From Thermoplasmatota archaeon (GTDB lineage: Archaea; Thermoplasmatota; Penumbrarchaeia; Penumbrarchaeales; Penumbrarchaeaceae): a DNA stretch of 22,832 nucleotides. Of the stretch, positions 1 to 14,651 are shown in pieces. Position 1 is the stretch's first letter; every line of letters begins with the position of its first letter. The stretch spans positions 1-22,832 of the forward strand of contig CBDDUX010000064.1 in the NCBI GenBank assembly GCA_965234725.1, in the 5' to 3' direction. Position numbers and translations under genes: made by a program. Under the pieces are notes generated by a model. The model did not search any database, had not been told where the DNA came from, and worked only from the letters and a program-made list of their open reading frames with translations.

Positions 1-426
1 TTCTTCCCTAAACAATGACCAACTTATAAATTTCCGTATAAATATGTCATAATTTAGGGGTCTAAAAATGCTCGACAGGAAACCCCCCACCCCCTGAAAT
101 GCTCGGAATTTCAAGGTTTTTATGGATATCCTTCAAGATCACATCCAGGAAAAAGGAACCTAAGAGAGAAAGGATTAATTACTATACTGGACACCCCTTT
201 TACATTGGCTAAAAAAAAGGCCTTTTCCTCGATTTCATCCAAATGTTCCCGAGCAACATTCACCATAGAGCAATTCCCGAGCACTTGAGAAATTAAGTAC
301 TTACTGATTTTCTTCTATATTTCATGGAATTATATGAGAAGTGATTAATAGAGTGCGGAAGATAATGTGTTGGTCAGATCCCTGTAATTCTTTGGGATAA
401 TTACTTTCCATCAAAATGATACTTAA

Positions 427-562
427 GGATGCGAAGCGGGCCTCATGCAAAGACCCGCCAAAGCTTCGCGTCCAACTACAAACCAGTTGGAACAGCGTTT
501 GCTTTGGATTACTAATTTTTGTGCTTGAATCCTCAGTTAGCTTTAGCTAACAAGAAATTCAA
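427..562 (+). other. Multi-hairpin structured leader inside the IS left end
   Basis: Stems: GGATGCGAAGC 427-437 / GCTTCGCGTCC 463-473; GCGGG 436-440 / CCCGC 454-458; TCCAACT 471-477 / AGTTGGA 485-491; CCAAAGC 458-464 / GCTTTGG 501-507; GTTAGC-TTTA-GCTAAC 536-551 nested in TTGAAT 525-530 / ATTCAA 557-562. Confidence 0.55.
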
Positions 563-612
563 CATGAAATGAAGAAAATGTGCATGGAACCGTTCCGCAG
601 GAGGCGAAAAAA

Positions 613-1968
613 ATGGACATCCAAATGGGCTTGAACGGATATTATGCACTCCCGGATATCAAGAACGATTTCGGGAATTCAAAAGCTCGGAGAGAATATA
701 ACAAATCATTGAAAAAGATACTGAAAAAATTGACGAGACTGAACAGATCAAGAAATGCGAAAAGAGTGTTGGCAGAAATAAAGTCTATGAAAACATGTGA
801 GAATTGCGGATCAACAAGGATGATCAACTGGGGCAATTATAGAAGAAGAGTCAAGACATACTTCAGCAAAAAGATTAGACGAATAAAAGTACGGAGATTG
901 AAATGCAAAAGATGTGGAAAGACGAAAAGCATTCTACCGAAATTCCTTACGAACCTGAGAAGATTCTCGAACAAGGCACTAAGGGATATGATAGATGCAA
1001 AACTGTGGTTGATCTCAGGTTACAGAAAGATCGCAAAATGGAGCAGGATCGGAGGATGCAGTCATACACATCTCATTCGGGAAATGAAGAAGCTGGGGCC
1101 GGTATGCAGGGATATCCTCAGGGCTGTGAAGTTGCCCTTTTCCGGTATAGTATGTGTGGATAAAGTGTGGTTCAGACGTGTCAAAGGAATCTTCTGCTAC
1201 AGTGCGACTGCTGTGGATGCAAGAACTGGATGTGTCATATTCGCAGAAACCTACTATGTGAACACGGTGAAGGCAAAAGAGAGATTCGGTGTTCTCGAAG
1301 GAGAGAACATTGTTGCCACGAAAACAAAATGCATCGAAATGTTCATGAAAGATCTTGTTGGGGTTATCGATCCGAAGGTAATCATAACGGATAATAATTC
1401 GAGCTATGACAAGATCATAGAGAAATATTTCCCAAAGGCAAAGCACATGTTGTGTTCCTTTCACATTGTCTGGGATATCGAGAAGAAGTGCAGGGTTCCA
1501 CGTGGTTTCAAACGCAGTCCAGAATTCAAGGCCATCAGAAAGGAGCTGTTGAATGTATTCGAAGCTAGAACGTTGACCGAAGCAAAAAAAAGGCTTGAAA
1601 ATGTACTTGGAAAGAGCAAGGACTTCATCGGTACGAGACTCGAACCGTTATTCAAAACATTGAATAACAACCGAGAAAAGATCTTTCCGTATCTCAGATA
1701 TGGCATCAACCGAACCAACAATCCGGTTGAGCATTATTTCGGATTTGTGAAGCGATTTCAGGATGTGTCTCACAAGTTCTCGACGCTTGAAGGTTTGAGA
1801 TCCTTGTTGAGTGTATTCGCATTGTTTTACAACTTCGCTCCCAAGATGGAGGGTCTTAACAAGGACGTGTCTCCTTTCATGAGATCAGGTTGGGACCATA
1901 AGATGGACATGTGGACTTACATAGATTATCCACATTGTTTTGATGCGAAACGGATGTGTGGGCTTTAA
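613..1968 (+). CDS. DDE transposase with N-terminal zinc ribbon (IS256/Mutator/ISH6-like, with IS6-like DDE motifs)
   Basis: Zinc ribbon CENC...CKRC; DDE motifs VCVD, IITDNNSSY and RTNNPVEHYF; Mutator-type C-x-x-H motif (HMLCSFH). ATG 613 follows a GGAGG RBS; the track starts at GTG 580. Confidence 0.85.
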   Translation: MDIQMGLNGYYALPDIKNDFGNSKARREYNKSLKKILKKLTRLNRSRNAKRVLAEIKSMKTCENCGSTRMINWGNYRRRVKTYFSKKIRRIKVRRLKCKRCGKTKSILPKFLTNLRRFSNKALRDMIDAKLWLISGYRKIAKWSRIGGCSHTHLIREMKKLGPVCRDILRAVKLPFSGIVCVDKVWFRRVKGIFCYSATAVDARTGCVIFAETYYVNTVKAKERFGVLEGENIVATKTKCIEMFMKDLVGVIDPKVIITDNNSSYDKIIEKYFPKAKHMLCSFHIVWDIEKKCRVPRGFKRSPEFKAIRKELLNVFEARTLTEAKKRLENVLGKSKDFIGTRLEPLFKTLNNNREKIFPYLRYGINRTNNPVEHYFGFVKRFQDVSHKFSTLEGLRSLLSVFALFYNFAPKMEGLNKDVSPFMRSGWDHKMDMWTYIDYPHCFDAKRMCGL

Positions 1969-2410
1969 ATAAAAGATGGTGAGGTCATGAGGTTCACGTT
2001 CAAAATCGACATTATACAACTGAAGCACCAACACTAAATGTTCCGCGCTCGTTTAGATATAAATCAATTTCACTATTTATTCGTCGTTTTATAGATACCC
2101 CCCTTTTCTGTTGTGAATTCCCCCAAATTGAGCAGGATCCATTTTCTGAACTGGTGTGTGATAAACATTCGTTTATCCCACACCCCTGATATGTCATTTT
2201 TTAACTGGATTTCCTTAAAATTCTCAGATACCCCTTTTTCAACCGTTCCTAAAACGTCCCTTAATGGGACACGGTTCAAGATCCTTTAAACTTGAGATTA
2301 TTATCTTTTCAAAGTGGGAAAGGAAGATTCATTAATCAATAATGCAATATATCCTTAAGGGAGGTCTTGGAAAAGAGTTCCTCAGAATGGATAAGTAAGG
2401 AAGTGAATGA

Positions 2411-3385
2411 ATGTCTCTCTCATTTTTTATTAGTTATATAACAAAAAATGATTTCCCTTACGTGAAGGAATTAAAAAAAACATTAGAAAATGATTATAGT
2501 TATGAGGTTTTTTTAGCGCCTGAAAGAAGTGAATATTCAATAAAAAATTCAGAAAAAATTTCTAAATACATAGATATGAGTCAAATATTTATTTCTATTA
2601 TGTCAGAAGATGCTTTGAAACTATATCCCGATTCTCCAAATTGGCTTCATCAAGAATTGGGATATGCATATAATCATTTTTTACATGGATATTTGCAGAT
2701 TATAATTATTTCAGATAATAAAGATTATATTAAAGGTTTCATCAATCCAATCACACATGATTTATCAATAATAAAAGGGGACCCCCATTTGAACGCCAGT
2801 GAAATTCATGACGCGATAACTGGTGGAATTCTTAAAAAAGAGGACCTTTATCCTTTGAAGTTAGATGTTATTACAAAACAGATATCTCCGAAAGGTATAC
2901 CTGGTATAAGACAGTTTAATTTAGAAGTGGAATTTATCATTCATAACAATTCATTTAGAGATCTAAATGATGGTACAATTTCATTTATTTTCCCAAAAGA
3001 AATATTTCCAGATTTTACTTCATCTGAAATTTCCATACCAATTAATATCGATCGAAAGGGAGTTTATGTTTACAATCATAAATCTAATAATCTACCAGAA
3101 AAAGTTTCAGAATTATTTGAAGGTGAACTTGACAAAATTGCAAGAAATACATTCTATTTGGGTACTGTTCACGCCCTTAATGCATATGAGTTTTCGATTT
3201 TACTCCAAAAAGGAGACGGGTCTAAAGATTATTGGGAATATAATAAGATTAAATTTGGTATACTTATAAAATTACCAATATTTGGCATATCGTTATATCA
3301 AGGTTGTGTAAGTCATATTACCGATTATAAAATAGAAATGTCCATTAAGAGAATTGACAACAATTGTTTATTATCTGTTGAATGA
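2411..3385 (+). CDS. TIR-domain protein with beta-rich C-terminal domain (putative anti-viral defence)
   Basis: N-terminal TIR signature FFISY...VFLA...I.KYIDMSQIFISIMS...NWLHQELGYA, with the catalytic Glu retained. The C-terminal ~180 aa is beta-strand rich (LEVEFIIHNNS..DLNDGTISFIFP). AT-rich DNA. Confidence 0.8.
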   Translation: MSLSFFISYITKNDFPYVKELKKTLENDYSYEVFLAPERSEYSIKNSEKISKYIDMSQIFISIMSEDALKLYPDSPNWLHQELGYAYNHFLHGYLQIIIISDNKDYIKGFINPITHDLSIIKGDPHLNASEIHDAITGGILKKEDLYPLKLDVITKQISPKGIPGIRQFNLEVEFIIHNNSFRDLNDGTISFIFPKEIFPDFTSSEISIPINIDRKGVYVYNHKSNNLPEKVSELFEGELDKIARNTFYLGTVHALNAYEFSILLQKGDGSKDYWEYNKIKFGILIKLPIFGISLYQGCVSHITDYKIEMSIKRIDNNCLLSVE

Positions 3386-3501
3386 ATACAAATCAAATAT
3401 TGTTATTATAACAATTTCTAAGTTTCGTCGAAATTGGTAACCAAAGACTATGGAAAGAGATATGAATAATAATGAATATAATGGAATAAAGAAGGGATGA
3501 T

Positions 3502-5010
3502 ATGATTGAAAATATAAAGTTGCAAAATTATAAGGGAATTAATCTCATTGAAATTAAGGATTTGGAACACATAAACGTTTTTTGTGGTAGAAACAATAGT
3601 GGGAAAACTACAATATTCGAAGCGATTCAAAATAAACCAAATATTGGAAAAAAAATTACAGATGATGACATTGAAAAAATCATCAAATTATGCTTTCCTG
3701 ATTCAACTTATGAGAGTTTTATTAAGGGTTATTTCGAGGAAAGGCGAGATGAAATACTCAAAGAAAATAAAATATGGTATAGAGAAAATGCGCCCGATTT
3801 TCAAAAGTGGGTATTAAAAATCTTTCAAAATCCCTATACTTTAACAAATGTTAGAGTGAATTATTACATTGAAAATCAAAAAATGATTACTTATATTGAA
3901 AATATAATTCCAGAAGGTAAATTGAATACTGCGTATTTACCCGCAAAAAGAATTATTAAACCATTTGCAAAATTTATAGCAAATCCTAAGTTAAATATAG
4001 ATGATGTAAATTTTCTAAACTATTTATTCTTTTGTAAAAATCAACTTCCTAATGATCCTAAGTTTAGTTATTATAAGAAAATTCAGATTATATTTGAAAA
4101 AATTACTAATGGATTTAATTTTGAAATAATTGCACGACCCGGTGATGAGCAAATAGAATTAAAATTCTCCAATTTAGAAAATGATTGGTACAGTGCTAAT
4201 AATTTTGGTATTGGATTAATCGATGTATTATTAATTTTAACTTTCTCAATATTACCAGATAATGATATTATTATTATTGAAGAACCTGAAAACCATTTGC
4301 ATCCTGAAATGCAAAGAAATCTGTTAAAATATTTAATTAGTATTGAAGAAAAGCAGTTTTTCATTTCGACACATGGAAATGTCTTTCTTGACAATAAGTT
4401 GGTGGATAAAATATATTATACCTATTATCAAAATAAGAATGTTTATATCAATGATGCAACAAGTAAAGCTCAAATACTACAAAATATTGGTTATTCAATT
4501 AATGAAAATTTAACATCTGATTTAATAATATTAACAGAAGGCCCCAAAGATAAAATTATTATTGAACATTTCATGATTGAATTAGGATTTTATTTTGATT
4601 ATAATATAAAAATATGGCCTCTTGGTGGAGATATTATGAATCAGTTGGATTTAGAGGTATTTTCTGACATGTATAATGTTATAGCATTAATTGATAATGA
4701 TCCCGAAAGTAGTAAAGTTAGAAATGAATTCATGGAGAATTGTCAAAAATATAATATTCATTGCCATAAATTGCATAGATATTCTATTGAGAATTATTAT
4801 ACATTGAGTGCAATAAAAGTAGTTTATGGTGAAAAAATTCCTGCTTCCGTGAATAATATTAAACCAAAAATAAAAGTTGATAAACAAATTGGTTTTAGTA
4901 TTAAAAGACAAGCGAATTCAATAGTGCAAAATATGTCATTATTGGATATTGCAGATACCGATCTATACTCATTTCTTCTTGAAGTAAAAAAGAGATGTGA
5001 AAATAATTAG
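3502..5010 (+). CDS. OLD-family ATP-dependent nuclease (ABC-type ATPase + TOPRIM)
   Basis: Walker A GRNNSGKTT; Walker B/D-loop IIIIEEPENHLHP; H-loop FISTH; TOPRIM motifs LTEGPKD and LIDND; SIENYY motif typical of OLD/GajA-type nucleases. Confidence 0.88.
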   Translation: MIENIKLQNYKGINLIEIKDLEHINVFCGRNNSGKTTIFEAIQNKPNIGKKITDDDIEKIIKLCFPDSTYESFIKGYFEERRDEILKENKIWYRENAPDFQKWVLKIFQNPYTLTNVRVNYYIENQKMITYIENIIPEGKLNTAYLPAKRIIKPFAKFIANPKLNIDDVNFLNYLFFCKNQLPNDPKFSYYKKIQIIFEKITNGFNFEIIARPGDEQIELKFSNLENDWYSANNFGIGLIDVLLILTFSILPDNDIIIIEEPENHLHPEMQRNLLKYLISIEEKQFFISTHGNVFLDNKLVDKIYYTYYQNKNVYINDATSKAQILQNIGYSINENLTSDLIILTEGPKDKIIIEHFMIELGFYFDYNIKIWPLGGDIMNQLDLEVFSDMYNVIALIDNDPESSKVRNEFMENCQKYNIHCHKLHRYSIENYYTLSAIKVVYGEKIPASVNNIKPKIKVDKQIGFSIKRQANSIVQNMSLLDIADTDLYSFLLEVKKRCENN

Positions 5011-5113
5011 AACGTTCAATTTTAAGAAATTTATTTTATTATAGAGAACTTACAGTGTTCAGAAGAAACTGTTTCAATCAGTGGAACCTTCTCAATACCA
5101 TGTAATGGGTAAC

Positions 5114-5824
5114 TCAAAATTTTGAAGAGACCTTGATAATATCATCAATCCGATCGATCTCATCAATGAGTTTTTTCCGGATCTCGATTAACTCTTCCAA
5201 GGATTGACCATTGGAAGAGGATCTCTTCATGATCCCGTCCTTTCTCAATCGATCAACCATCTCATCAACAGAATATCCTTCATACTCCTCCATTAAGACC
5301 CGGGCAGTATCCCCGGTTTGATCCATCACCCATCGAATATCCCTTCCCATCTCTTTGGAGAGCCTTACAAACGTTGTTCGGAGAGAATGGAACTTGAGCT
5401 TCTTCTTGATCGATGTTCTCTTCAAGACGTTCTGAAGGTAATTATAGGCCGTTCGATCACTGATATCAAAAAGATCCTTTTGTCTTGGATCCAAGGTTGA
5501 AATATACATTCGGAGAGTGATTACTGTTTCAGGTTCGAGAGCAACCTCCCACCATCGATCCTTTTTCTCTTCCCAGAATTTTATCCGGGATCCTTCCAGA
5601 TCTACATTTGCGATTTGAATGGAAACGATATCATTCCTCCGGATCCCGGTGGTTAATCCTAACTCGAGAAGAGCCCTTTCCAGGGGAGTCTCACAAGATT
5701 TGAGGAACTCCTGAACCTCCTTGAATGATAGGGATGGTTTGGATCTCTTAATGGCCCCGATATCAAGCTTTTCCGTTTTGTGGTGGAAATCGGAAAAACC
5801 CCTCTTTTTCGGACCTGGTTTCAT
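5114..5824 (-). CDS. Tyrosine recombinase/integrase (catalytic domain only, 236 aa)
   Basis: Motifs TGIRRNDI (Arg), FHSLR (HxxR) and QTGD...EEY (Tyr nucleophile). RBS GAGGGGGTGA precedes ATG 5824. Confidence 0.88.
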   Translation of the reverse strand: MKPGPKKRGFSDFHHKTEKLDIGAIKRSKPSLSFKEVQEFLKSCETPLERALLELGLTTGIRRNDIVSIQIANVDLEGSRIKFWEEKKDRWWEVALEPETVITLRMYISTLDPRQKDLFDISDRTAYNYLQNVLKRTSIKKKLKFHSLRTTFVRLSKEMGRDIRWVMDQTGDTARVLMEEYEGYSVDEMVDRLRKDGIMKRSSSNGQSLEELIEIRKKLIDEIDRIDDIIKVSSKF

Positions 5825-5901
5825 GGATTCACCCCCTCAAAACATGGGATTTTTGCCTTTTCTCGCTGGAATCGGAATCGTAAATTATAAAACACCGTCA
5901 T
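5821..5901 (-). CDS. 26-aa linker ORF (MTVFYNLRFRFQREKAKIPCFEGVNP) coupled to the integrase start
   Basis: ATG 5901 overlaps the end of ORF 5885-6265, and its TGA overlaps the integrase ATG (ATGA). Read by hand; below the track's length cut-off. Confidence 0.35.
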   Translation of the reverse strand: MTVFYNLRFRFQREKAKIPCFEGVNP

Positions 5902-6265
5902 CCCATTCAATTTTGAAGATGATTGAAGAGCCTGTCTGAGTAATGATTTGTATTCTCACAGAAAGGTATCTTTGCATGGAAAATACCTCAGTTATTGATA
6001 GCAACATACCCTTTGATGCGATTGCTAATGATTTCTCGGACAGACTCTGAATATGAATAATATTCATCAAATGGTTTCTAGATTTAAAGAAAACCTTCGA
6101 AGGGCTGGGATACAAGAACCTGAATTGAGTGAAATGGCGAGAGATTATGAAAATGATCTCAGAGAAGTTCAAGAGTCCGTCGAAAGAAGCATTGAAGATG
6201 CAAAGAGGAGAGCAGACATTGAAAAACGGAGGATAGATTACATGATTATGTAAAGATTTAACCAT
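5885..6265 (-). CDS. Hypothetical ORF in the coupled chain, antisense to 6053-6253
   Basis: AAGGGGGGGTG RBS upstream of ATG 6265; start overlaps the end of the upstream ORF. Composition is partly antisense-shadow-like. Confidence 0.35.
   Translation of the reverse strand: MVKSLHNHVIYPPFFNVCSPLCIFNASFDGLLNFSEIIFIISRHFTQFRFLYPSPSKVFFKSRNHLMNIIHIQSLSEKSLAIASKGMLLSITEVFSMQRYLSVRIQIITQTGSSIIFKIEWDDGVL
6053..6253 (+). CDS. Small charged helical hypothetical protein (66 aa)
   Basis: E/R-rich amphipathic-helix pattern (ELSEMARDYENDLREVQESVERSIEDAKRR) that looks protein-like. Confidence 0.5.
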   Translation: MNNIHQMVSRFKENLRRAGIQEPELSEMARDYENDLREVQESVERSIEDAKRRADIEKRRIDYMIM

Positions 6266-6989
6266 TTATTGAGCACCCCCCCTTTACCTCTTCAATGCAG
6301 ATTCGGAAAGAATATGATTTGGTCAATTCTTCATCTATAGTCATTACTATTATTATTCTCGAAAATCGATATAATAAAAGATAACTCCTTAAGATAATCC
6401 TATTTATTAATAAATGATGATCGAGGTTGGTGGAGCTACATTTTGTGAGGGCAGTAACCTTCCGATCTTTAACCTTATACAATTTGTTTGTCCAAAGTGC
6501 AATTCTGATAAAATTACCTCGGATATGAATAAATCCATTTGTGGACACTATATGTGGCAATGCCTTGAGTGCGAATTTAGTTGGTGTAATTAACATTATT
6601 GTACGCAATTGTAAGTTACATTTGCGTTGATTGATCATGATAACGAACAACATAAATACATTATTCAAAATCGTTTTCCTATGGATGAGAGATCCTTGTA
6701 ATGTGAAGAATGCGGACATCGTCCGTTCATTGCTTATACATTTGGAAGAGTCATTGAAAGGGAATGTGTTAATGAAAAATGCACAATGTTTAGAAAAGTA
6801 ATCTGATTTTACATTATCGATAATACCGATAATATAAGATTTTTTAAAATGAAAATGGCCTAAATTATTTGGAAAAAAGAAGAAGCAACCCAGGATCGGG
6901 AAGAGAGGAGATTGGAATTTCTGAGAGAAATGAACTCCCCGGGTTGCGATTCCAATCATGGGATGGCCAGTATTAAATAATCGGTCCAT
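6258..6989 (-). CDS. Hypothetical ~243-aa ORF in the coupled chain, antisense to plus-strand mini-genes
   Basis: Stop-free for more than 240 codons in AT-rich DNA; TAATG stop/start overlap at 6987-6991; AAGGGGGT upstream. F/I/H-rich and E/D-poor composition. Confidence 0.4.
   Translation of the reverse strand: MDRLFNTGHPMIGIATRGVHFSQKFQSPLFPILGCFFFFPNNLGHFHFKKSYIIGIIDNVKSDYFSKHCAFFINTFPFNDSSKCISNERTMSAFFTLQGSLIHRKTILNNVFMLFVIMINQRKCNLQLRTIMLITPTKFALKALPHIVSTNGFIHIRGNFIRIALWTNKLYKVKDRKVTALTKCSSTNLDHHLLINRIILRSYLLLYRFSRIIIVMTIDEELTKSYSFRICIEEVKGGCSING
6414..6593 (+). CDS. Small zinc-ribbon protein (59 aa)
   Basis: Manual translation MMIEVGGATFCEGSNLPIFNLIQFVCPKCNSDKITSDMNKSICGHYMWQCLECEFSWCN shows a CPKC...CLEC..W zinc ribbon. 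Missed by the ORF track. Confidence 0.6.
   Translation: MMIEVGGATFCEGSNLPIFNLIQFVCPKCNSDKITSDMNKSICGHYMWQCLECEFSWCN
6681..6806 (+). pseudogene. Small zinc-finger gene relic with in-frame TAA
   Basis: MDERSL*CEECGHRPFIAYTFGRVIERECVNEKCTMFRKVI*: CxxC...Cx4C knuckles interrupted by TAA at 6699-6701. Confidence 0.4.
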
Positions 6990-7465
6990 TAACAAAGACA
7001 AAACCCCCTTGAGTTGGTTGGTATTTTGAATACTACCCTCTCTTGGATTCGTAAGAATCTCCTTTTAGATATTATTGAGAATAACAGAGATATCTTTTTC
7101 AGCCAACTCTTCCAATCATGAATGTGGTAATAGAAATGAAACCACCATTCTTTGATAGACTCAAATTTCATTTCGAAAAAAAAGAACAAATGAAAAGGCT
7201 GGTGATATGTGGAACCATTGATCCAGAGCCTTTGAAAAAGGGTGAGAAATATTTGATCACTCTTTTCGAAAACTCTACTTGTCCACATTTCTATAAAACC
7301 GATATTGTTGAACATGGAATGGATGCCCATGGAAATATCGTTCCAAAATACATTGTAGGAATTATTGATGAGGATAATGAGAGTATTATTCCGACTCAAA
7401 TCAAGGAAGAAACGGCATATGACGGGAAAATTGAATTGATTTAAGATGATTATTTTCGAGGCCAT
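6989..7465 (-). CDS. Hypothetical 158-aa ORF in the coupled chain, antisense to 7118-7444
   Basis: GAAAGGGGGG immediately before ATG 7465, which overlaps the end of the upstream gene; stop overlaps the next ATG. Confidence 0.35.
   Translation of the reverse strand: MASKIIILNQFNFPVICRFFLDLSRNNTLIILINNSYNVFWNDISMGIHSMFNNIGFIEMWTSRVFEKSDQIFLTLFQRLWINGSTYHQPFHLFFFFEMKFESIKEWWFHFYYHIHDWKSWLKKISLLFSIISKRRFLRIQERVVFKIPTNSRGFCLC
7118..7444 (+). CDS. Hypothetical protein (108 aa)
   Basis: Normal globular-protein composition (E/K/D/I-rich); no family recognised. Confidence 0.55.
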   Translation: MNVVIEMKPPFFDRLKFHFEKKEQMKRLVICGTIDPEPLKKGEKYLITLFENSTCPHFYKTDIVEHGMDAHGNIVPKYIVGIIDEDNESIIPTQIKEETAYDGKIELI

Positions 7466-7662
7466 TCCCCCCTTTCATCTTCTCGACAATGTTGATGTCT
7501 CTTACAGAATTTCTTGGATTTTACAACGTAATCATTGATCGAGATGGGATATTCGACCTCTTCTATCTCACCACACCGAAGACAACGGAAAACAGCAGGT
7601 TGGACAGAATCGTCAATGACGCACCAGGTGATATTCTTGAACGCTGTCCACTTCTCACCCAT
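7450..7662 (-). CDS. Small Cys/His zinc-binding hypothetical protein, phage/plasmid-like
   Basis: FRCLRCG...FCKRHQHC; GGTGGTG RBS before ATG 7662 (the track starts at GTG 7674). Confidence 0.65.
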   Translation of the reverse strand: MGEKWTAFKNITWCVIDDSVQPAVFRCLRCGEIEEVEYPISINDYVVKSKKFCKRHQHCREDERGEWPRK

Positions 7663-7810
7663 GGACAACACCACCCGGGTTTATTCGTTCCATTATTAGA
7701 CGGTTGATGATTATATCAGGGGATTCTAAGATATCTTCGAAATCAGTCCGGAGACCTTCACCTTCATACTGTTGAATATCCGATTCACATTCTACAAGAT
7801 ATCCATCATT
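7655..7810 (-). pseudogene. 3' remnant of a gene truncated by the IS110 fragment
   Basis: Open frame NDGYLVECESDIQQYEGEGLRTDFEDILESPDIIINRLIMERINPGGVVHG* with no proper start; its end overlaps ATG 7662. Confidence 0.45.
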
Positions 7811-8118
7811 TCATTTTGGAGCTCCTCTCATCAACGCTGAACGAAGTAATCGATTGCCTTGCTTGGAAATATGACCCACTCGTTTCAATGATTTTCCTGA
7901 CTCATATACACTGGATCCAGACCAACATATGCATCAAGGGAATTATACCCGTGAAAATGGTTGACATCACCAAGGATGGCAAGAGATGTTGCACCAATGA
8001 TAGTACCTACACCATTTATGGAACTGACATACTGGTTCATCTCACTGTAGTGTTTCTGGATCTTGCCAAATATCTGTTTGGTCTGTTTGTTATTAGGGTC
8101 TAGACCTCCATTGATCAA
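7811..8118 (-). pseudogene. IS110-family transposase fragment (C-terminal Transposase_20 region), frameshifted
   Basis: SINGVGTIIGATSLAILGDVNHF...LDAYVGLDP, then after a 1-nt shift near 7906, YESGKSLKRVGHISKQGNRLLRSAL. This matches the IS110 GLxP..xSG...ISKxGNxxLR motif. The N-terminal RuvC-like domain is absent. Confidence 0.85.
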
Positions 8119-8166
8119 AAGCTCAACAAAGTAACCTCTGCCCGAAATGCAGGATATAATTAGTGT

Positions 8167-8199
8167 GGGGGGAAGGGATCGTAATAAACTCTTCCCCCC
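8167..8199. terminator. GC-rich hairpin downstream of the large surface-protein gene
   Basis: GGGGGGAAG 8167-8175 pairs with CTTCCCCCC 8191-8199, about 20 nt after the stop at 8221. Confidence 0.5.
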
Positions 8200-8220
8200 T
8201 AGGTTAGGAGGTACTTTCAG

Positions 8221-11200
8221 TTATTTCTTGTTGGTTTTTATTAGTAAACCAGATCCAACAAGAGCGACAATGGCCAGAAGGATGATGAGCATGGTGGAGA
8301 TAATCGGATTGTTGTTCACCAGCTCCTTCACAACAAAGCTGCCCTGGACCTTGACGGTCCTACTAACTGAGTTGCTGTCTCCTTCTCCTCCGGGTGCTTC
8401 CACAACGGTGTTCTCAGGATCGAGGACAACCTCAACCTTATGATCACCCGCTTCTGCGACCCATGAGAAGATGACCGTCTTCTCATCGGTCTCGTTGTCT
8501 CCGTTCCTTACCGACCTCAAGGTAGAGATCTTCTTCTCCTCACCATCGATCTTGAGCTGGACATCCACGTTCTCCGCGGGGATATCACCGACGTTCTTGA
8601 TCTTCACTATAATGGTGAGGACATCGCCGACGGTGGCATGATAGCCGCTGTCTGCATTTCCGCCCGAGAATTCCACTGCCCTGCCCTTATCGTCCTTCAC
8701 GAAGATAAGATCGGGGAACAGGACCTCGAGCTTTATGATGGTCTCATTCCAGTCACTTGGACCACCCTCTCCGCGACCTGCAACGGATATGTCTGTGGTC
8801 GCTGAGGATTGGACCTCGAACCTCGGAGCCTTCAAAGTCAGATGGATCCATGCGGTCTGACCCTTATCCAGGACAAGGGTTATGTCGCGGATCTCGTTGA
8901 GGTTGGATCCCGAAACCGCAGCTGCGGTGAAGTTCGGTGTGTAGTATACATCCGCCACCAGATTCGAGATCGGGATCTCGTTGGTGAAGTCGAAGGGTCT
9001 TATGTTGGTCGTGAAGTCAGGTGTGTTGGCGATTGCAACAAACTTACCTTCCCAACCATCATAGAGGACCTCCATCTGGTCCCTGACCGGATCATACTGC
9101 TTTCCAAGCCTCAGGGTTACCCTCTCGAGGCCGTTTCCGTAGTTGCCGACCCGGAGGACGAATGGTTTCTCCTGGTCAGGCTGGATCTGGGCGGTCATGA
9201 CATTGGTATCGTCCAGGGTTTCGACCTGTAGATCGTATGTCTGATTCACATAGACCTTAACGTATACGACCTTGGATGAGCCTTCACCTGTCAGATTCAC
9301 TCCAACAACATACCAACCGGTCCTTGTGTTTTCCGGGACCTTGATACGGCCGTTGATGAAGATATTGCTCTTCCAGTCCATGGTGAACTCATACTTCTGG
9401 TAACCTTCCAGATTGTAGAAGGTCAGATTCCAATCAAGGAGGATCTCGTAGGCATTGGGCATGATCATGTCCTCGCCGTTCCCAAGGTTGGATACCTGCA
9501 TCCTGAACCATACGTTGTTGCCGGGATCCACCCTTACACTGTCCTTTTCAATTACCACCGCATCGAACTCATAGACATGGTTGACTATGACCGTCAGCGG
9601 AGCAGAAGCACGGATATTGGTGGCATCTTTGACCACACCTATCACATTCAGGACCAGCTTCTGATTTGCTCCAACGTATCCGGGGGCAGTTACTCTGATG
9701 GTAACAGGTCTTGTCTGTCCCTGGTATACCGCCTGGGGTTCCTCGGGATATCTAACTGTCCAGCCAGGCTGCTTACCTTCTATTGAGAGTACAACATAGA
9801 TAATATCCTTGTTACCAAGGTTGGTTATCTCAAGTGTGTATTCCACAGTTCCGTTCGGATCAACATATTTGGTGGAATCCTCGATCCTGAGCTGAAGTTC
9901 GTTCACCTCACCGACTATCATGATCAGTTTGTCGACCTTGATGATATCCTCGATAACTGCTTCCTTGGACCTTCCGGAAACACCGGTCAATATGATGGGG
10001 ATCTGTGTATCCTTGGTAGCATCGATGGGACATTTCACCTTTACGGTGAATGAAGTTCCGGTGATCCCACCGAACTGTTCGGCAAGAGGCGGCGCAGTAA
10101 GGGATATGTTCGCTGTAATATCTCCGGTCTCAACGAAATACCAATCCCAACCAGCATCCAGTGGAGGCGGGCTGAGTGTAAGCTCGTAGGTATCATTGAG
10201 GTTGCCCTTGTTCAGTACGGATATCGTGTATATACCTTCAGCTCCCGGATTGATCTTGTCCCATTTCTCACCTACAAGCGGATCGAGGGGATCTGTGGAA
10301 GCCTGTTTCAGGTAGTTCAACTCGAAATCCACGAACAGGTCCAGGATCGTCAAGGTGGTTATCGTATCCGAAGCGAACTGGTCCTGTGAGGAGTTGGCCG
10401 AGATATTGATCCTTGCCATCTCTCCGATGTCACCTTCCCATGGCGCATAGACCGTCAACTGAAGGAAAGCGACCTGTTGAGAAGCGAGTCTCACATAGCT
10501 CGGATTGTCGTTCCCTTTGTCCGGTGGTGTGTCCAGTAAGGCAGACCATCCCTCGGGGATCGAATCCTGCTCGATTGCGACATAGATTACGTCCTTATTG
10601 ACCTCTGAGATGCCCTTTCCGGTGTTCTCAACGGTCAGGTTGTATGTGACATATGATCCGGGCTGGACGGACTTCACAAGGGTATCCAGGGGTTGCCCGG
10701 TCTCCATGTCCTTCCTGGGATAGATATCCACACCGAAGGAAAGCTGGGGGTTGTAGAATCCGGTCCTGTTGAGATCATAGTGGAACTCGGGCCAATCGGC
10801 CTGGCCCTTAACGGATCTTCCACCAGCGGAGATGCAATAGACATGTCCTTCCTGATCGCCGATGACGACCTCGAGCATTCCGTCGAGGTCTATGTCACCA
10901 ACAACAGGTGATGAGATACCGATGGGGACTCCGGTGTCGTAGACCCAGAGAACATCCTGAAGGGGACCGTCCCCGGGGTAGGGTACTCCCTCATCTATAC
11001 CATCCGATGGATCTCCATCGAAACAAAAGACCTTACCTGAATCGGAACCTATCACGATCTCCAGTTCATCATCATTGTTGATATTGCATATTGCAGGAGA
11101 TGACATGCACCTTCCACCTGTATCGAAAGTCCATAATGCGTTATGGAACTCGGAGTTCAAAACATACATCATTCCATTGTCAGCACCGAAGATGACCTCA

Positions 11201-12453
11201 TAGTCGAGATGCTTCTCTTCAGGATCGTCCTTTGCTACCTGAAGATCGGCTATTGCCGGTGATGAGAAGATGGATGCACGGGAGTTACCAGTCTGGTAGT
11301 CCCAGAGCTTCTTCCCGGAAGGAGTATAAACAAAGAGCTTTCCACCCCATCCGGTCCAGGTCAATTCCCATCCTTCGGAGCTTCCGATGAATATTTCGCA
11401 CTCTGGTGTACCCGTGACGTTTGCAACTGCCGCTGTTGCATAGGTCTGGTGACCAGCAAGCATTCCTGAAGTTGATTCGTCGTAATTGGGTTTCCCCTCA
11501 GCATTCTCTCCCTGCCTTTCAAAGATCCTCAGACCTCTGTCGTGGTTTCCGATGATGAGTTCTGTATCCCTCTCCTTTGACGGGTCCGGGTCGATCAGAG
11601 TAGGACCATCCCAGAAATCACCATCAAGATCATGGGCAACGACAGAGCATCCGATAAGACCCCCCTCTTCACCTGTAGGAGCTTGTTCTCTGAAGATCGC
11701 ACCACCGTCGACCTCGAAGGCCTCCAGCCATCCCTTCCGTCCTTCATCGTCGGATGCAAGGACGATCTCAAGGTCCTCCTTATCGCCTGTCCATTCTCCC
11801 TCAAGATCGGTGATACAGGCTGTGGAGAAGTAATATCCAGTTGTCAATCCCTTCTTCCACTGCTTCTCACCGTCGGACCCGATACATAGAGCACCATCCT
11901 TAACACCGAGGATTATCTCAGGCGTATCACCGAGGTTCACGTCAGCGGTTATAACGGAAGCAAAGATAGGCGGAGGAACGAAATCGAGACCGGATGTACC
12001 AGCCGTTTGTCCGAGATAGTCTATAACATCGTCACCATACGGATTGGACCAGAAATAGCTTCCGTCCGGTCTCAATGCATAGATGTAATCACCAGCCGAG
12101 GCGATAACGACCTCAAGATCGTTGTCATTGTCCAGATCGACAATGGCAGGGGATGAGAGATATTCTCCCTCAGCCTCGAATAGAGTCGTCTGCCATTCAA
12201 GCTGACCTCCTCCAGACCTGGTGATGTAGTCATTCACAAGCGGGTTTCCAGTATCATCTACGGGTGCCTTGATCTGACCAAATTTCTCGAAGAGATCCCT
12301 CTTCGAATTGAGCCAGGTATCGAAAACAAGGTTGTCGACATCGACGGTATCGACATACTTGTAAAGCACATATCCTCCAATGGCCGAAGCCGTGAGGAGC
12401 ATCAGGATGCCCCCGATGAGCAGTAGTCCCTTGGGTTCAGATCTTTTCGACAT
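8221..12453 (-). CDS. Large cell-surface protein: FG-GAP/PQQ-like beta-propeller, tandem Ig-like (NEW3/CARDB-like) domains, C-terminal membrane anchor
   Basis: Repeated SSPAIxDLDxDxxLEVVI blades; repeated V.PG...Y.L.V.N.GN modules; CARDB-like tail (IKNVGDIPAENVDVQL...VVLDPENTVVE); N-terminal hydrophobic segment; C-terminal TM helix with a basic tail. AGGAGG RBS favours ATG 12453. Confidence 0.88.
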   Translation of the reverse strand: MSKRSEPKGLLLIGGILMLLTASAIGGYVLYKYVDTVDVDNLVFDTWLNSKRDLFEKFGQIKAPVDDTGNPLVNDYITRSGGGQLEWQTTLFEAEGEYLSSPAIVDLDNDNDLEVVIASAGDYIYALRPDGSYFWSNPYGDDVIDYLGQTAGTSGLDFVPPPIFASVITADVNLGDTPEIILGVKDGALCIGSDGEKQWKKGLTTGYYFSTACITDLEGEWTGDKEDLEIVLASDDEGRKGWLEAFEVDGGAIFREQAPTGEEGGLIGCSVVAHDLDGDFWDGPTLIDPDPSKERDTELIIGNHDRGLRIFERQGENAEGKPNYDESTSGMLAGHQTYATAAVANVTGTPECEIFIGSSEGWELTWTGWGGKLFVYTPSGKKLWDYQTGNSRASIFSSPAIADLQVAKDDPEEKHLDYEVIFGADNGMMYVLNSEFHNALWTFDTGGRCMSSPAICNINNDDELEIVIGSDSGKVFCFDGDPSDGIDEGVPYPGDGPLQDVLWVYDTGVPIGISSPVVGDIDLDGMLEVVIGDQEGHVYCISAGGRSVKGQADWPEFHYDLNRTGFYNPQLSFGVDIYPRKDMETGQPLDTLVKSVQPGSYVTYNLTVENTGKGISEVNKDVIYVAIEQDSIPEGWSALLDTPPDKGNDNPSYVRLASQQVAFLQLTVYAPWEGDIGEMARINISANSSQDQFASDTITTLTILDLFVDFELNYLKQASTDPLDPLVGEKWDKINPGAEGIYTISVLNKGNLNDTYELTLSPPPLDAGWDWYFVETGDITANISLTAPPLAEQFGGITGTSFTVKVKCPIDATKDTQIPIILTGVSGRSKEAVIEDIIKVDKLIMIVGEVNELQLRIEDSTKYVDPNGTVEYTLEITNLGNKDIIYVVLSIEGKQPGWTVRYPEEPQAVYQGQTRPVTIRVTAPGYVGANQKLVLNVIGVVKDATNIRASAPLTVIVNHVYEFDAVVIEKDSVRVDPGNNVWFRMQVSNLGNGEDMIMPNAYEILLDWNLTFYNLEGYQKYEFTMDWKSNIFINGRIKVPENTRTGWYVVGVNLTGEGSSKVVYVKVYVNQTYDLQVETLDDTNVMTAQIQPDQEKPFVLRVGNYGNGLERVTLRLGKQYDPVRDQMEVLYDGWEGKFVAIANTPDFTTNIRPFDFTNEIPISNLVADVYYTPNFTAAAVSGSNLNEIRDITLVLDKGQTAWIHLTLKAPRFEVQSSATTDISVAGRGEGGPSDWNETIIKLEVLFPDLIFVKDDKGRAVEFSGGNADSGYHATVGDVLTIIVKIKNVGDIPAENVDVQLKIDGEEKKISTLRSVRNGDNETDEKTVIFSWVAEAGDHKVEVVLDPENTVVEAPGGEGDSNSVSRTVKVQGSFVVKELVNNNPIISTMLIILLAIVALVGSGLLIKTNKK

Positions 12454-12692
12454 CAAGTGAATTCCTCCTTTCCAAGAACCCAAGAGCGTATCCTATATGA
12501 TTCATCATTTTTGAGTGTATAAATAATCATCTGTACATAAATTGTAACAAATTTCTTGGGAAAGAAGATATTCTTGTACAGTATTTGTATTATTATACAT
12601 AGTTACACAATATTGAAAGATTCCGGATGGATTAAAATCTCAAATTTCGCTATGACAGGGTGTTGCAACCAACAAAATGAGAAATGAATAGA

Positions 12693-12745
12693 GGGTCATG
12701 GGGTCTTCAAGCAGAAAGCTAGAAGCGTTGACAAGCCCATGACCC
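12693..12745 (+). promoter_or_regulatory. Hairpin directly upstream of the transposase start
   Basis: GGGTCATGGG 12693-12702 / CCCATGACCC 12736-12745 form a perfect 10-bp stem ending 10 nt before ATG 12756. Confidence 0.5.
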
Positions 12746-12755
12746 AGTGCTTAAA

Positions 12756-14342
12756 ATGCCAACAGAACGAGTATATCCTTCCCAGATAAAGATTGTTTCG
12801 GAATACTTGAACGATGTCACTCTGTCAACCATCATGGATCTCAAGGAAAATACGGGGATCACTCACCAACAATATCGAAGGATGGTCAAAGACAAGACAC
12901 TCACAACATCGCTCAATTACGAACACAACTGGATCACATTGACAAGCATCATCAGGAAGAACAAAGATCATTGGGGTTTTTTCACACACCGTATTGAAAG
13001 ATACTCAAGGACAGTTGCGATATTCCACATAAAGAGAACCGGAAAGGACACGCTGCCATACCTGGCTTCAAAGAGACCATGGGGATTGTCAGAAAAAGAA
13101 GCAGAAGAACTACTTGGAAGGGACTGCAAGAGACCTCTTAGAGAACTGGAGAAGAACAATTCCATCCAGTCCAGAATCATACATGGTGATAGAGTTTACC
13201 TGAACAGGGTCAACAAGAAAGCGGATATCCAGGTAAAAGAGAGAAGGATCAATCCAAAGTTCCATACAGATGATAATGAAGAGGATGAAGATAAGGTCGG
13301 ATACATCAAATACGAAGATTTCTGCAAGACCTTCAAGGAAGCTTTGAACGAAATGGACGAACAATGTCCGGTATCCGATGACAGGATATCCACACTGATG
13401 ATGATGTTCAACACGAACAGATCGCTCAGAACAATGGAGACATGGGTGAGGTTCAATACCAGGGTGCAAGAAGCTGTAGGTCTCAATTGGGACATCGATC
13501 ATTCAACATTATGCCGGGACATGGGCCAGATAGATGAAAGTTACCTGAAAAGACTATTCCATCATCTGGTGATGAAACTGCATGATAAGGGCATAATAAC
13601 AGGGAAGTTCCTTGTTGTAGATGCTACGCATATCTATGCATTCTGCAATACCAGAAAAGACACTGATAGATACGGTATTGAAGGTGCAACCTGGGGCAAC
13701 CATCATGGGAGTTTCTATGGTTACAAGATACATATCCTGATAGATGCCGAATCAGAACTGCCTGTTGCGATGATATTCAGCACCGGTAAAGACAACGATT
13801 CCCCTCATTTCATTCCACTCTTAGATGATCACGTTGAGAACAACGATCTTGGTGAAGCTGGAGCACTCCTAGCCGATGATGGATACGATGTGAAGAAGTT
13901 CAGAAAAGAGGTTTTAAACAAGACTGGCGGGATATTCCTACCTGCCTGCAATCCGAGGAAAAGCAAGATACTTAAGAGGATGAAAGCCAGGATTAAGAAA
14001 CTGTTTGACACTCATGGTGACAAGATCCATTCTGTTGAAGATGGTTTCAGGTATCTTGGTCAGACGTTCCTGACGATGTTCGGAATAGAGCTTGGTGATC
14101 CGGGTGCCAATAAACTTGTTGAGCTGATAGCTGAGAGATTGCACAGACCTCTCCGTGCGGGAGTAGAACGTGTATTTTCACGGTTGAAAGCTTTGACATC
14201 ATTTGAAGAACCGAAAGCTAGGATTCTGGATACTGTGAAGAAGACGGTGTGGTTCTGTTTGATAGGTCAGCTTGTTCAGGCCAGGACTGCTGTTGACAAA
14301 GGTTTGAGAGGATCTATGCGTAAACGAACAGCTCTGGTCTGA
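12756..14342 (+). CDS. DDE transposase (DDE_Tnp_1-like) with long N-terminal HTH-like extension
   Basis: Motifs DHSTLCR, LVVDATH, YGYKIH, LLADDGYD and RAGVERVFSRLK. Confidence 0.9.
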   Translation: MPTERVYPSQIKIVSEYLNDVTLSTIMDLKENTGITHQQYRRMVKDKTLTTSLNYEHNWITLTSIIRKNKDHWGFFTHRIERYSRTVAIFHIKRTGKDTLPYLASKRPWGLSEKEAEELLGRDCKRPLRELEKNNSIQSRIIHGDRVYLNRVNKKADIQVKERRINPKFHTDDNEEDEDKVGYIKYEDFCKTFKEALNEMDEQCPVSDDRISTLMMMFNTNRSLRTMETWVRFNTRVQEAVGLNWDIDHSTLCRDMGQIDESYLKRLFHHLVMKLHDKGIITGKFLVVDATHIYAFCNTRKDTDRYGIEGATWGNHHGSFYGYKIHILIDAESELPVAMIFSTGKDNDSPHFIPLLDDHVENNDLGEAGALLADDGYDVKKFRKEVLNKTGGIFLPACNPRKSKILKRMKARIKKLFDTHGDKIHSVEDGFRYLGQTFLTMFGIELGDPGANKLVELIAERLHRPLRAGVERVFSRLKALTSFEEPKARILDTVKKTVWFCLIGQLVQARTAVDKGLRGSMRKRTALV

Positions 14343-14528: not shown

Positions 14529-14651
14529 GGAGTGTGTCCGAGAAATAAAAAAACAATCTCATCGGAGGGTATATTCAATCTTCAAACTACCCGTTTTTCA
14601 AGGTAAAGTTACCCGTCCGTGTGGTTGAAAGTCATTTCTCGGATAGGCTCT
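14529..14651. mobile_element. MITE, 123 bp, with IS5-like ends
   Basis: IR GAGTGTGTCCGAGAAAT 14530-14546 / ATTTCTCGGATAGGCTC 14634-14650 (14/17 match); flanked by TA on both sides; no ORF. Confidence 0.6.

Follow-up and report, generated by a model that had tools for sequence, protein, structure and literature searches.

We examined a 22,832-nt stretch of DNA from a Thermoplasmatota archaeon (contig CBDDUX010000064.1, hereafter the window) and focused on positions 5114-7810, where a chain of open reading frames (ORFs) that overlap one another on the minus strand runs antisense through several plus-strand ORFs to reach an integrase gene. The explanation that we favour, with a probability of about 45%, is a composite one: two of the three middle minus-strand ORFs, of 158 and 126 codons (m158 and m126), would be shadow frames that link real genes, the integrase would be autonomous, and the third, of 243 codons (m243), would be a candidate translated ORF that encloses a small plus-strand gene, p59. 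Positions 5114-8118 would represent mobile DNA that has decayed, not one operon, and either strand would carry genes: p102, p59 and perhaps p66 would be the real plus-strand genes, and the integrase and probably m70 the real minus-strand genes. Under the same explanation, m158 would be the in-register antisense shadow of p102, m126 that of p66 together with a repeat resembling a miniature inverted-repeat transposable element (MITE), and m243, with its Shine-Dalgarno (SD)-like tract and a stable 3' hairpin in the minus sense, would be an antisense ORF around p59.

Read from stop to stop, overlapping open frames of 76, 161, 268, 126, about 29 and 240 codons tile the minus strand from 7683 to 5114, with the longer ones at 7450-7683 (76 codons), 6989-7477 (161), 6258-7067 (268), 5885-6268 (126) and 5114-5839 (240). 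The ORFs within them lie at 7450-7674 (m70; GTG start, with an ATG at 7662), 6989-7465 (m158), 6258-7001 (m243; TTG start, with an ATG at 6989), 5885-6265 (m126), 5821-5910 (m29; with an ATG at 5901) and 5114-5824 (the integrase). Every member of the chain that a first-pass annotation of this DNA had listed is therefore present, and the remnant that it saw ending at 7655 is a start-less open frame (7810-7655) cut by a fragment of an IS110-family transposase. The five same-strand junctions overlap by 4-26 nt; the ATG of m243 at 6989 forms TAATG with the upstream stop, and the stop of m29 forms ATGA with the integrase start. On the plus strand, ORFs occupy 7118-7444, 6414-6593 (p59) and 6053-6253 (p66), and the open frames in register with the minus frames extend over 7447-7707, 7082-7444, 6411-6593 and 6029-6253; these coordinates bear out the claim that the three middle minus-strand ORFs share a codon register with plus-strand ORFs. 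In the convergent pair p66 and m243 the two stops are separated by 4 nt, in the convergent pair p102 and m70 by 5 nt, and an AT-rich spacer of 135 nt lies between the divergent m243 and p102.

The probability of a stop-free run given the plus-strand codons, a check that the first-pass annotation had called for, was computed under a null model in which plus-strand proteins were kept, codons were resampled and spacers followed a first-order Markov process with a stop chance of 0.059 per codon. The observed openness exceeded that of every null model that could be built, most of all in the 268-codon frame. The analytic probability of openness was 0.0013-0.005 for m126 and 0.0007-0.006 for m158, and fell to 1e-7 to 5e-7 for the 268-codon frame; an open frame of at least 268 codons arose in none of 20000 Markov simulations and in none of 10000 simulations for each of two codon tables. 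The 268-codon frame is thus too long for chance. Long in-register shadows are common in the host, where 22 of 1039 long genes cast one of at least 268 codons, but 70 genes lie below 40% GC and not one of these does so, and the shadows of 49 host genes of GC 0.33-0.40 have a median of 83 and a maximum of 198 codons. m158 and m126 are shorter than this maximum and m243 is longer. Plus-strand genes cover 103 of 158 codons in m158, 67 of 126 in m126 and 60 of 243-268 in m243, and each of the three shares the register of a sense gene for which there is support, from homologues for p102 and p59 and from composition for p66. In the composite explanation, m158 and m126 stay open because the plus-strand genes happen to lack TTA, CTA and TCA and because 48-56 flanking spacer codons happen to be free of stops. 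Approximately 250,000 windows were read in the first stage. On that scale a lone coincidence of 1e-4 to 1e-6 should turn up somewhere, and two of about 0.005 can be believed; the 268-codon frame cannot, except as one of a handful of such accidents in the entire scan.

m243 (243-247 codons; 268 stop to stop, to 7067) is deposited as a hypothetical protein, and the other two minus frames over 6594-7001 contain about 9 and 11 stops. Its GGGGG tract lies 8 nt before a TTG at 6995 and 14 nt before the ATG at 6989. At positions -20 to -3 of 1330 long host ORFs, GGGGG, GGTGA, AGGTG and GGAGG are enriched 5- to 6-fold, with a spacing peak at 5-8 nt (GGTGA and GGGGG 6-fold). By this host measure the SD is good at the integrase, m126 and m70, usable at m243, badly placed at m158 and lacking at m29, which gives an SD-like tract at usable spacing for three or four of the six chain starts. 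TTA accounts for 11 of the 27 Leu codons of m243, as expected of an AT-rich sense strand. p59 lies wholly within 6258-7001 on the opposite strand, and under the composite explanation m243 is a candidate translated ORF enclosing p59 antisense and in register, most likely translated now or until recently. No amino-acid constraint is visible in m243; selection, if any, would act on the open frame or on a very young product.

The three middle minus-strand ORFs have the shadow-like composition that had been attributed to them. m126, m243 and m158 contain 10-14% Phe and 5-6% Asp + Glu, G occupies codon position 1 at a frequency of 0.13-0.17 (0.28 in real genes), and the parts of the minus-strand ORFs outside plus-strand genes show no significant codon periodicity (chi2 5.2-6.9, p 0.33-0.52). 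In m243, the 136-codon spacer part, opposite which no gene is known, had a chi2 of 6.1 (p 0.41); only 0.75% of the 532 windows taken from real genes scored that low. Pfam, PHROG, PADLOC and NCBIfam gave no match to any of the three ORFs, and PADLOC and NCBIfam none to any other small ORF; the large protein databases were queried with m243, not with m158 or m126. A word-based search of 5.8 billion proteins, which is blind to distant relatives, returned no homologue of m243 of 133-426 aa, and 400 genomes of the phylum gave 5 marginal hits only (16-18 bits), 3 of them with internal stops. The protein atlas gave no hit of at least 0.9 for m243 or m158. A membrane protein was considered as the cause of the Phe/Ile-rich composition and rejected: no hydrophobic segment in m126, m243 or m158 is long enough for a membrane helix, the maximal 19-residue hydropathy being 1.52 with no segment of at least 1.6. 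A frameshifted pseudogene of one large minus-strand gene was likewise discarded, given the lack of a homologue and of periodicity and the presence of real plus-strand genes inside.

p59 (6414-6593, plus strand) is an unannotated four-Cys zinc-ribbon gene in the same register as m243. When a 218-residue read-through translation was compared with 1.84 billion representative proteins, the sole match was a 64-aa protein (P0009; E 1.4e-4) that aligned over p59 only. The two share 26 identities in 60 columns (43%), and P0009 retains both Trp, the terminal Cys and every one of the four Cys of the zinc ribbon and has an identical C-terminus. Conservation of these Cys and Trp residues through the minus frame would need conserved third positions of the minus codons, so selection acts on the plus frame. 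A second genome of this genus carries the p59 signature in an ORF of 57 codons. Beyond the p59 stop (6594-7067), the plus frame remains protein-like and carries a second CxxC...CxxxxC motif, broken by 6 TAA and 1 TGA. Stop-codon recoding across plus 6414-7067 was excluded, as the read-through query matched p59 alone and P0009 ends at the TAA of p59.

The 108-codon plus-strand ORF exists as described (annotated p108, 108 aa from 7118), and its homologues move the start 18 nt downstream to the ATG at 7136, leaving a 102-codon gene (p102, 7136-7444) for a small all-beta protein of unknown function. A search of 5.8 billion proteins returned three homologues of 102-107 aa, with identities of 91, 71 and 65%; each begins at the Met of 7136, and a 35-residue core is almost invariant. 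AlphaFold, run on the four-sequence alignment, gave a best model with seven strands, a predicted local distance difference test (pLDDT) score of 71.8 and a predicted template modelling score of 0.62, the best of five, the other four reaching a pLDDT of 35-42; a structure search with the model found no match at E ≤ 0.001. Its codon score favours the plus sense (+0.09/+0.14), and G stands at codon position 1 at a frequency of 0.29 versus 0.13 for m158. p66 (6053-6253, plus strand), a charged, helix-like ORF of 66 codons and uncertain status, has a sense-versus-antisense codon score of +0.14/+0.17, compared with +0.13 ± 0.09 for real low-GC genes at the same window size, and no homologue in the protein database search. 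The earlier view that the plus-strand ORFs are the more protein-like thus holds for p102 and p59, which have homologues and can be considered real, and p66 stands without one; the reverse situation, in which the minus-strand ORFs are ordinary conserved proteins and the plus-strand ORFs lack homologues, is not what we find in the profile libraries and, for m243, in the large protein databases.

m158 (6989-7465, minus strand), which is unannotated, is most likely the p102 shadow running on into the spacer. m126 (5885-6265, minus strand) is annotated as a protein and is most likely a shadow of p66 plus a repeat: its codons 72-113, a third of the ORF, are the antisense of a 121-nt, hairpin-forming, MITE-like repeat at 5927-6047 (plus strand). 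Seven copies of 121-122 nt occur on four contigs of the genome, at 5927-6047 and 14530-14651 of the window and elsewhere in the assembly (G000) at C22:39480-39600, C108:12796-12916 and C109:18633-18753, 29743-29863 and 31001-31121. The copy at 5927-6047 is the most divergent; the 6 others are 69-73% identical to it and all lie in intergenic positions between large ORFs. The repeat ends pair over about 17 bp as terminal inverted repeats, and the consensus fold (-38.3 kcal/mol) has 37 pairs, 2 of them with compensatory changes. An Rfam scan of the window, repeat included, gave no match; from its sequence the repeat could be a MITE or a small structured RNA family. Antisense stops occur in at least 2 of 3 frames in every copy and in all three antisense frames in the 6 others, and the m126-equivalent frame, which contains 2-3 stops in each of those 6, is open in 5927-6047 only. 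The minus frames are open across the gaps between the plus-strand genes, as the first-pass annotation had stated, and one of the gaps that it called non-coding (5927-6047) is a repeat copy.

The remaining members of the chain are short. m29 (5821-5910, minus strand), a linker ORF of 26-29 codons with no SD-like tract at either start, is probably without function. m70 (also m74; 7450-7674, minus strand) is a Cys-rich ORF convergent with p102, with the SD GGGTGGTG 7 nt before its ATG at 7662 and G at codon position 1 at a frequency of 0.33; profile libraries assigned it no family and no close relative was found, and it is probably a real minus-strand gene. At the head of the chain, the start-less remnant (7655-7810, minus strand) comes from an acidic, protein-like ORF with codon periodicity (chi2 17.8, p 0.007), is cut at its 5' end and abuts the decayed insertion sequence (IS) fragment.

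A long inverted repeat at 6189-6298 (6189-6214 with 6275-6298) straddles the stops of p66 (6253) and m243 (6258) and holds the G-run and start of m126. Folded in the minus sense it reaches -45.1 kcal/mol (z-score -7.4; 0 of 200 shuffles as good), versus -26.6 kcal/mol in the plus sense (z-score -2.25; 2 of 200 shuffles as good). The strength of the minus-sense fold suggests a minus-strand transcript there, and the hairpin could mark the 3' end of such a transcript or mask the m126 start; part of the strand asymmetry may stem from the G-run pairing with a pyrimidine tract. The two convergent junctions, 6245-6298 and 7436-7485, resemble each other, each with TAA, 4-5 nt, TTA, a run of 6-7 C, TTT and a CT-rich tract. 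At both, the C-run begins 23 nt past the plus-gene stop, and only the junction at 6245-6298 has a significant hairpin. This common pattern may be a duplicated module or a shared signal.

The gene at the end of the chain (5114-5824, minus strand) encodes an apparently intact, short tyrosine recombinase/integrase of 236 aa (PF00589, 50.4 bits against a cut-off of 27.1, residues 32-171; PHROG integrase, E 2.5e-21) that is 46-52% identical to homologues of 228-242 aa in three related genomes; integrases of 52-54% identity occur in four related genomes. Tyrosine recombinases use a catalytic Arg, a His-x-x-Arg motif and a C-terminal Tyr, and R62/R63, H146, R149 and Y181/Y184 are invariant in all 4 aligned homologues. 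It is not a XerA equivalog (NCBIfam XerA-type, 68.5 bits against a cut-off of 220), and no N-terminal core-binding (SAM-like) domain was hit; its relatives are equally short. Its leader (5825-5892, minus strand) contains a near-consensus SD 4-7 nt from the ATG (GAGGGGGTGA, which stops 4 nt short of it); farther upstream, at 57-68 nt from the ATG, a TATA-like box (5881-5892) would serve as the integrase promoter. A TATA-like box stands at a similar distance in two relatives (L012 and L013). Three related loci (L011, L012 and L013) are available with 1-1.4 kb upstream and a fourth (L009) with about 190 nt only. In the former three, the integrase stands alone beside host or tRNA-like sequence, and no chain of overlapping ORFs leads into it.

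Searches for relatives of the DNA upstream of the integrase gave little. A DNA search over 41 related genomes matched the integrase part only, and DNA related to 5830-7810 was found in none of the collections searched. The p102 family profile had no hit in 37 genomes of the class and a single marginal one (E 0.005) in 400 genomes of the phylum; p102, sought by profile or by a degenerate pattern for its invariant stretch FENSTCPHFYK, yielded nothing in JGI metagenome contigs, GTDB genome contigs or IMG/VR. A tblastn comparison with plasmids and phages gave no match, and IMG/VR searched with the 247-codon form of m243 (m247), the p59 family and m70 returned nothing usable. Short contigs were available from runs X1-X3 (short pieces only): two 151-nt contigs of run X2 are identical to 6602-6752 and 6834-6984, and a 136-nt contig of run X1, which may come from the source sample, is 81% identical over 6087-6216.

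Several observations weigh against the composite explanation. Each of the five junctions places an ATG no more than 16 nt from the upstream stop (ATGA, TAATG, ATGGTTAA), which resembles a coupled operon. TTA, CTA and TCA are used at none of the 23 Leu and Ser codons (12 Leu, 11 Ser) of the three plus-strand ORFs (joint P 0.008 with host mean usage, 5e-5 with low-GC usage). The explanation requires two coincidences of about 0.005 and a short linker ORF, which is plausible only given the many windows screened. Codon periodicity of m243 is low (chi2 10.4; none of 241 real-gene windows of that length scored so low), and that of the 268-codon frame (chi2 13.0) is the 16th lowest of 2117 ORFs of at least 200 codons. 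G at codon position 1 (0.17) and Asp + Glu content (5%) are low in m243, its predicted fold has a pLDDT of 32.9, and its atlas recognition value is 907, where 2300 is the yardstick reached by 91 in 100 proteins of known families. Over 6119-6187 of the run X1 contig the p66 frame gains a stop and the minus frame stays open: 13 of 23 codons are changed, with 1 silent and 12 non-silent changes in the plus frame (one of them the stop) and 4 silent changes in the minus frame, evidence that is weak because only 17 of the 25 differences of the contig were listed. Among ten weakly related zinc-ribbon loci, which are distant look-alikes and not related elements, 7 carry at least one antisense stop in the gene, with antisense runs of 17-77 codons, so genes of this sort do not as a rule keep the opposite frame open. 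Finally, the promoter elements are only look-alikes, as TATA-like hexamers in the host peak nearer to the start, at -21 to -50.

The alternative that survives best is that m70, m158, m243, m126, m29 and the integrase form one translationally coupled unit whose frames were selected to stay open, either as bridging ORFs whose sequence would not matter and which would shield the transcript from premature termination, or as several true antisense genes; we consider it doubtful. Equally doubtful is the associated notion that the minus frames over 7465-5885, and not m243 alone, would be selected open since ribosomes must traverse them, the sequence being otherwise unconstrained or the genes young and antisense, so that their function would lie in being translated, by way of coupling or of protection from termination. 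The joint probability of the three open frames, if they are taken as pre-specified, is 1e-13 to 1e-11. Gap-free chains with a start in each overlap arose in only 2 of 20000 first-order Markov simulations, and in 2 of 10000 and 1 of 10000 simulations, for the two codon tables, in which the plus-strand proteins and m70 were kept and synonymous codons resampled. To this can be added the ATG close to the upstream stop at every junction and the avoidance of TTA, CTA and TCA by the plus-strand genes. The G-rich, ribosome-binding-site-like tracts reported at most starts are also there: within 5800-7500 the plus strand has exactly four runs of at least five C (5832, 7004, 6276 and 7467), each 1-17 nt upstream of a minus-ORF start, although the spacing at m158 is 1 nt and m29 has no run. 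The copy at 5927-6047 is free of the stops present in all 6 other repeat copies, and the minus frame is open in the divergent run X1 contig. The genome also contains a 657-codon beta-CASP (FttA-like) frame as well as TBP, so the termination machinery that such a mechanism invokes probably exists.

Points on the other side lead us to prefer the composite explanation over a coupled unit, and the proposal of bridging ORFs that deliver ribosomes to the integrase is not supported. An SD and a TATA-like box of its own precede the integrase gene, and in the three related loci the gene stands alone. Minus-sense RNA would contain a T8 tract at 7176-7183, inside m158, and a T6 tract at 6873-6878; for runs of at least 7 T, low-GC host genes show 0.16 per kb in their own sense against 0.46 per kb antisense. 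The G-run of m158 is only 1 nt from its ATG, m29 lacks one, and that of m126 is locked in the -45 kcal/mol hairpin, a structure that might just as well terminate the m243 transcript. The chain begins with an ORF that has no start codon and follows the IS fragment, the repeat-derived part of m126 has stops in the other copies, and coding periodicity is found in none of the ORFs. We know of no example of ORFs of 126-268 codons selected for openness alone, though no search aimed at such cases was made. What does stand from the suggestion of dual-strand coding or gene birth is m243 with p59, as a candidate antisense overlapping pair.

Somewhat less probable still is that the three middle minus-strand ORFs, with m243 among them, all lack a function and arose by chance or as shadows; only length would then have led to two of them being called as proteins. 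m243 has no homologue and none of the three has a family; periodicity is absent, m243 has no confident fold and membrane helices are lacking. The codon score (0.00/+0.02) favours neither strand, and atlas recognition reaches 907 for m243 and 995 for m158, short of the 2300 yardstick. With 22 of 1039 long host genes casting in-register shadows of at least 268 codons, empty frames of such length are common here at higher GC, and about 250,000 windows were screened. Against this, a known gene faces no more than 60 of the 268 codons, the remainder being spacer with a stop chance of 0.059 per codon (P 1e-7 to 5e-7); of the 70 host genes with less than 40% GC, 0 cast so long a shadow; stops number about 9 and 11 in the two remaining minus frames over 6594-7001; and the SD-like tract and 3' hairpin of m243 are placed as in a real gene.

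The converse, that the minus-strand ORFs are ordinary fast-evolving operon genes and the plus-strand ORFs shadow artefacts, would suit the open-frame statistics and the junctions, the ordinary shadow lengths of plus frames of 59-119 codons at this GC, and the fact that p108 relatives are detectable only where the plus frame is open and called, yet it is very improbable given the Cys, Trp and C-terminus shared by p59 and its 43%-identical homologue, which would need conserved minus third positions, the codon score and position-1 G of p102 relative to m158, the same start in all three p108 homologues, and minus-strand ORFs with 5-6% Asp + Glu and 10-14% Phe.

The window is one complete 22.8-kb contig of a genome of 3.54 Mb in 114 contigs with 45% GC, and its positions 1-8200 form an island of mobile and defence genes with 24-42% GC. 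On the plus strand, a Mutator-type (Mutator/DUF6431) transposase gene that looks intact (580-1968) is followed by a gene for a TIR-domain protein (2411-3385; PF13676, E 1e-5, slightly below the cut-off; no PADLOC match) and one for a 502-aa GajA/NsnB/OLD-like ATPase with a TOPRIM domain (3502-5010). This defence-type pair (2411-5010, 24-29% GC) is convergent with the integrase and, by analogy with related integrase loci, may be integrase cargo. Behind the chain, two frame-shifted C-terminal fragments of an IS110-family transposase occupy 7811-8118 on the minus strand (PF02371, E 7e-8 and 0.009), and over 7871-8034 run X1 shows a second variant of IS110, which has one gap and differs at 9 positions. 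Beyond the island lies a host surface-protein gene of 1420 codons. The TBP family was found in the genome; among the controls, TBP occurred only in archaea. The deposited annotation calls the 243- and 126-codon minus-strand ORFs and the 108-codon plus-strand ORF, and leaves out p59, p66 and m158. Across 4900-8300 of the window, the word depth in run X1 contigs was about 600-13000 over 5926-8300, 4-7 over the integrase (divergent contigs) and zero over 5356-5925; such holes prove nothing.

If m243 is translated, the locus would provide a clean archaeal case of a longer ORF that encloses, antisense and in codon register, a small gene that is conserved. If instead the whole chain is selected, its frames would be kept for the act of translation and not for a product, which would bear on the coupling of translation to transcript survival in archaea. 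If neither holds, the locus becomes a warning case, with two frames deposited as hypothetical proteins and the zinc-ribbon gene p59 opposite left unannotated.

Translationally coupled operons have stop-start overlaps of the ATGA or TAATG type. The chain resembles them in having an ATG within 16 nt of the upstream stop at five junctions and an SD-like tract at three or four of six starts, and is unlike them in that a coding signature, expected in each ORF of a coupled operon, is missing from m126, m243 and m158, opposite-strand genes lie inside, and a T8 tract and an internal promoter-like box are present. Factor-dependent termination by FttA/aCPSF1 in archaea is linked to U-tracts (PMC11616081, PMC8716108). 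The genome has a beta-CASP frame of the right size for such a system, and nothing that we read describes ORFs being kept open as an escape from termination. Long ORFs in alternative frames are, according to Mir et al., 2012 (PMC3454372), commoner than codon bias predicts. Like the shadow ORFs considered there, the middle minus-strand ORFs are in the register of plus-strand genes and can be stopped only by sense TTA, CTA or TCA, and m158 and m126 fall within the shadow sizes of this genome; unlike shadow ORFs, the longest frame has only 60 of 268 codons opposite a known gene, and the three frames abut with a start at each junction. Antisense overlapping genes have been reported in a few bacteria, with two long ones in Pseudomonas aeruginosa (PMC8850804) and others in E. 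coli O157:H7 (PMC9927249), and a review (PMC7457138) names archaeal data sets as still to be examined for them. As in the bacterial cases that the review covers, m243 and p59 would pair a long ORF with a conserved gene on the opposite strand, and m243 shares with young overlapping genes an SD-like tract and the lack of detectable relatives. The published bacterial cases, as those accounts present them, rest on ribosome profiling and purifying selection, whereas m243 and p59 are known from sequence alone; the nesting is also inverted with respect to those cases, the conserved gene being the small inner one, and the host is archaeal.

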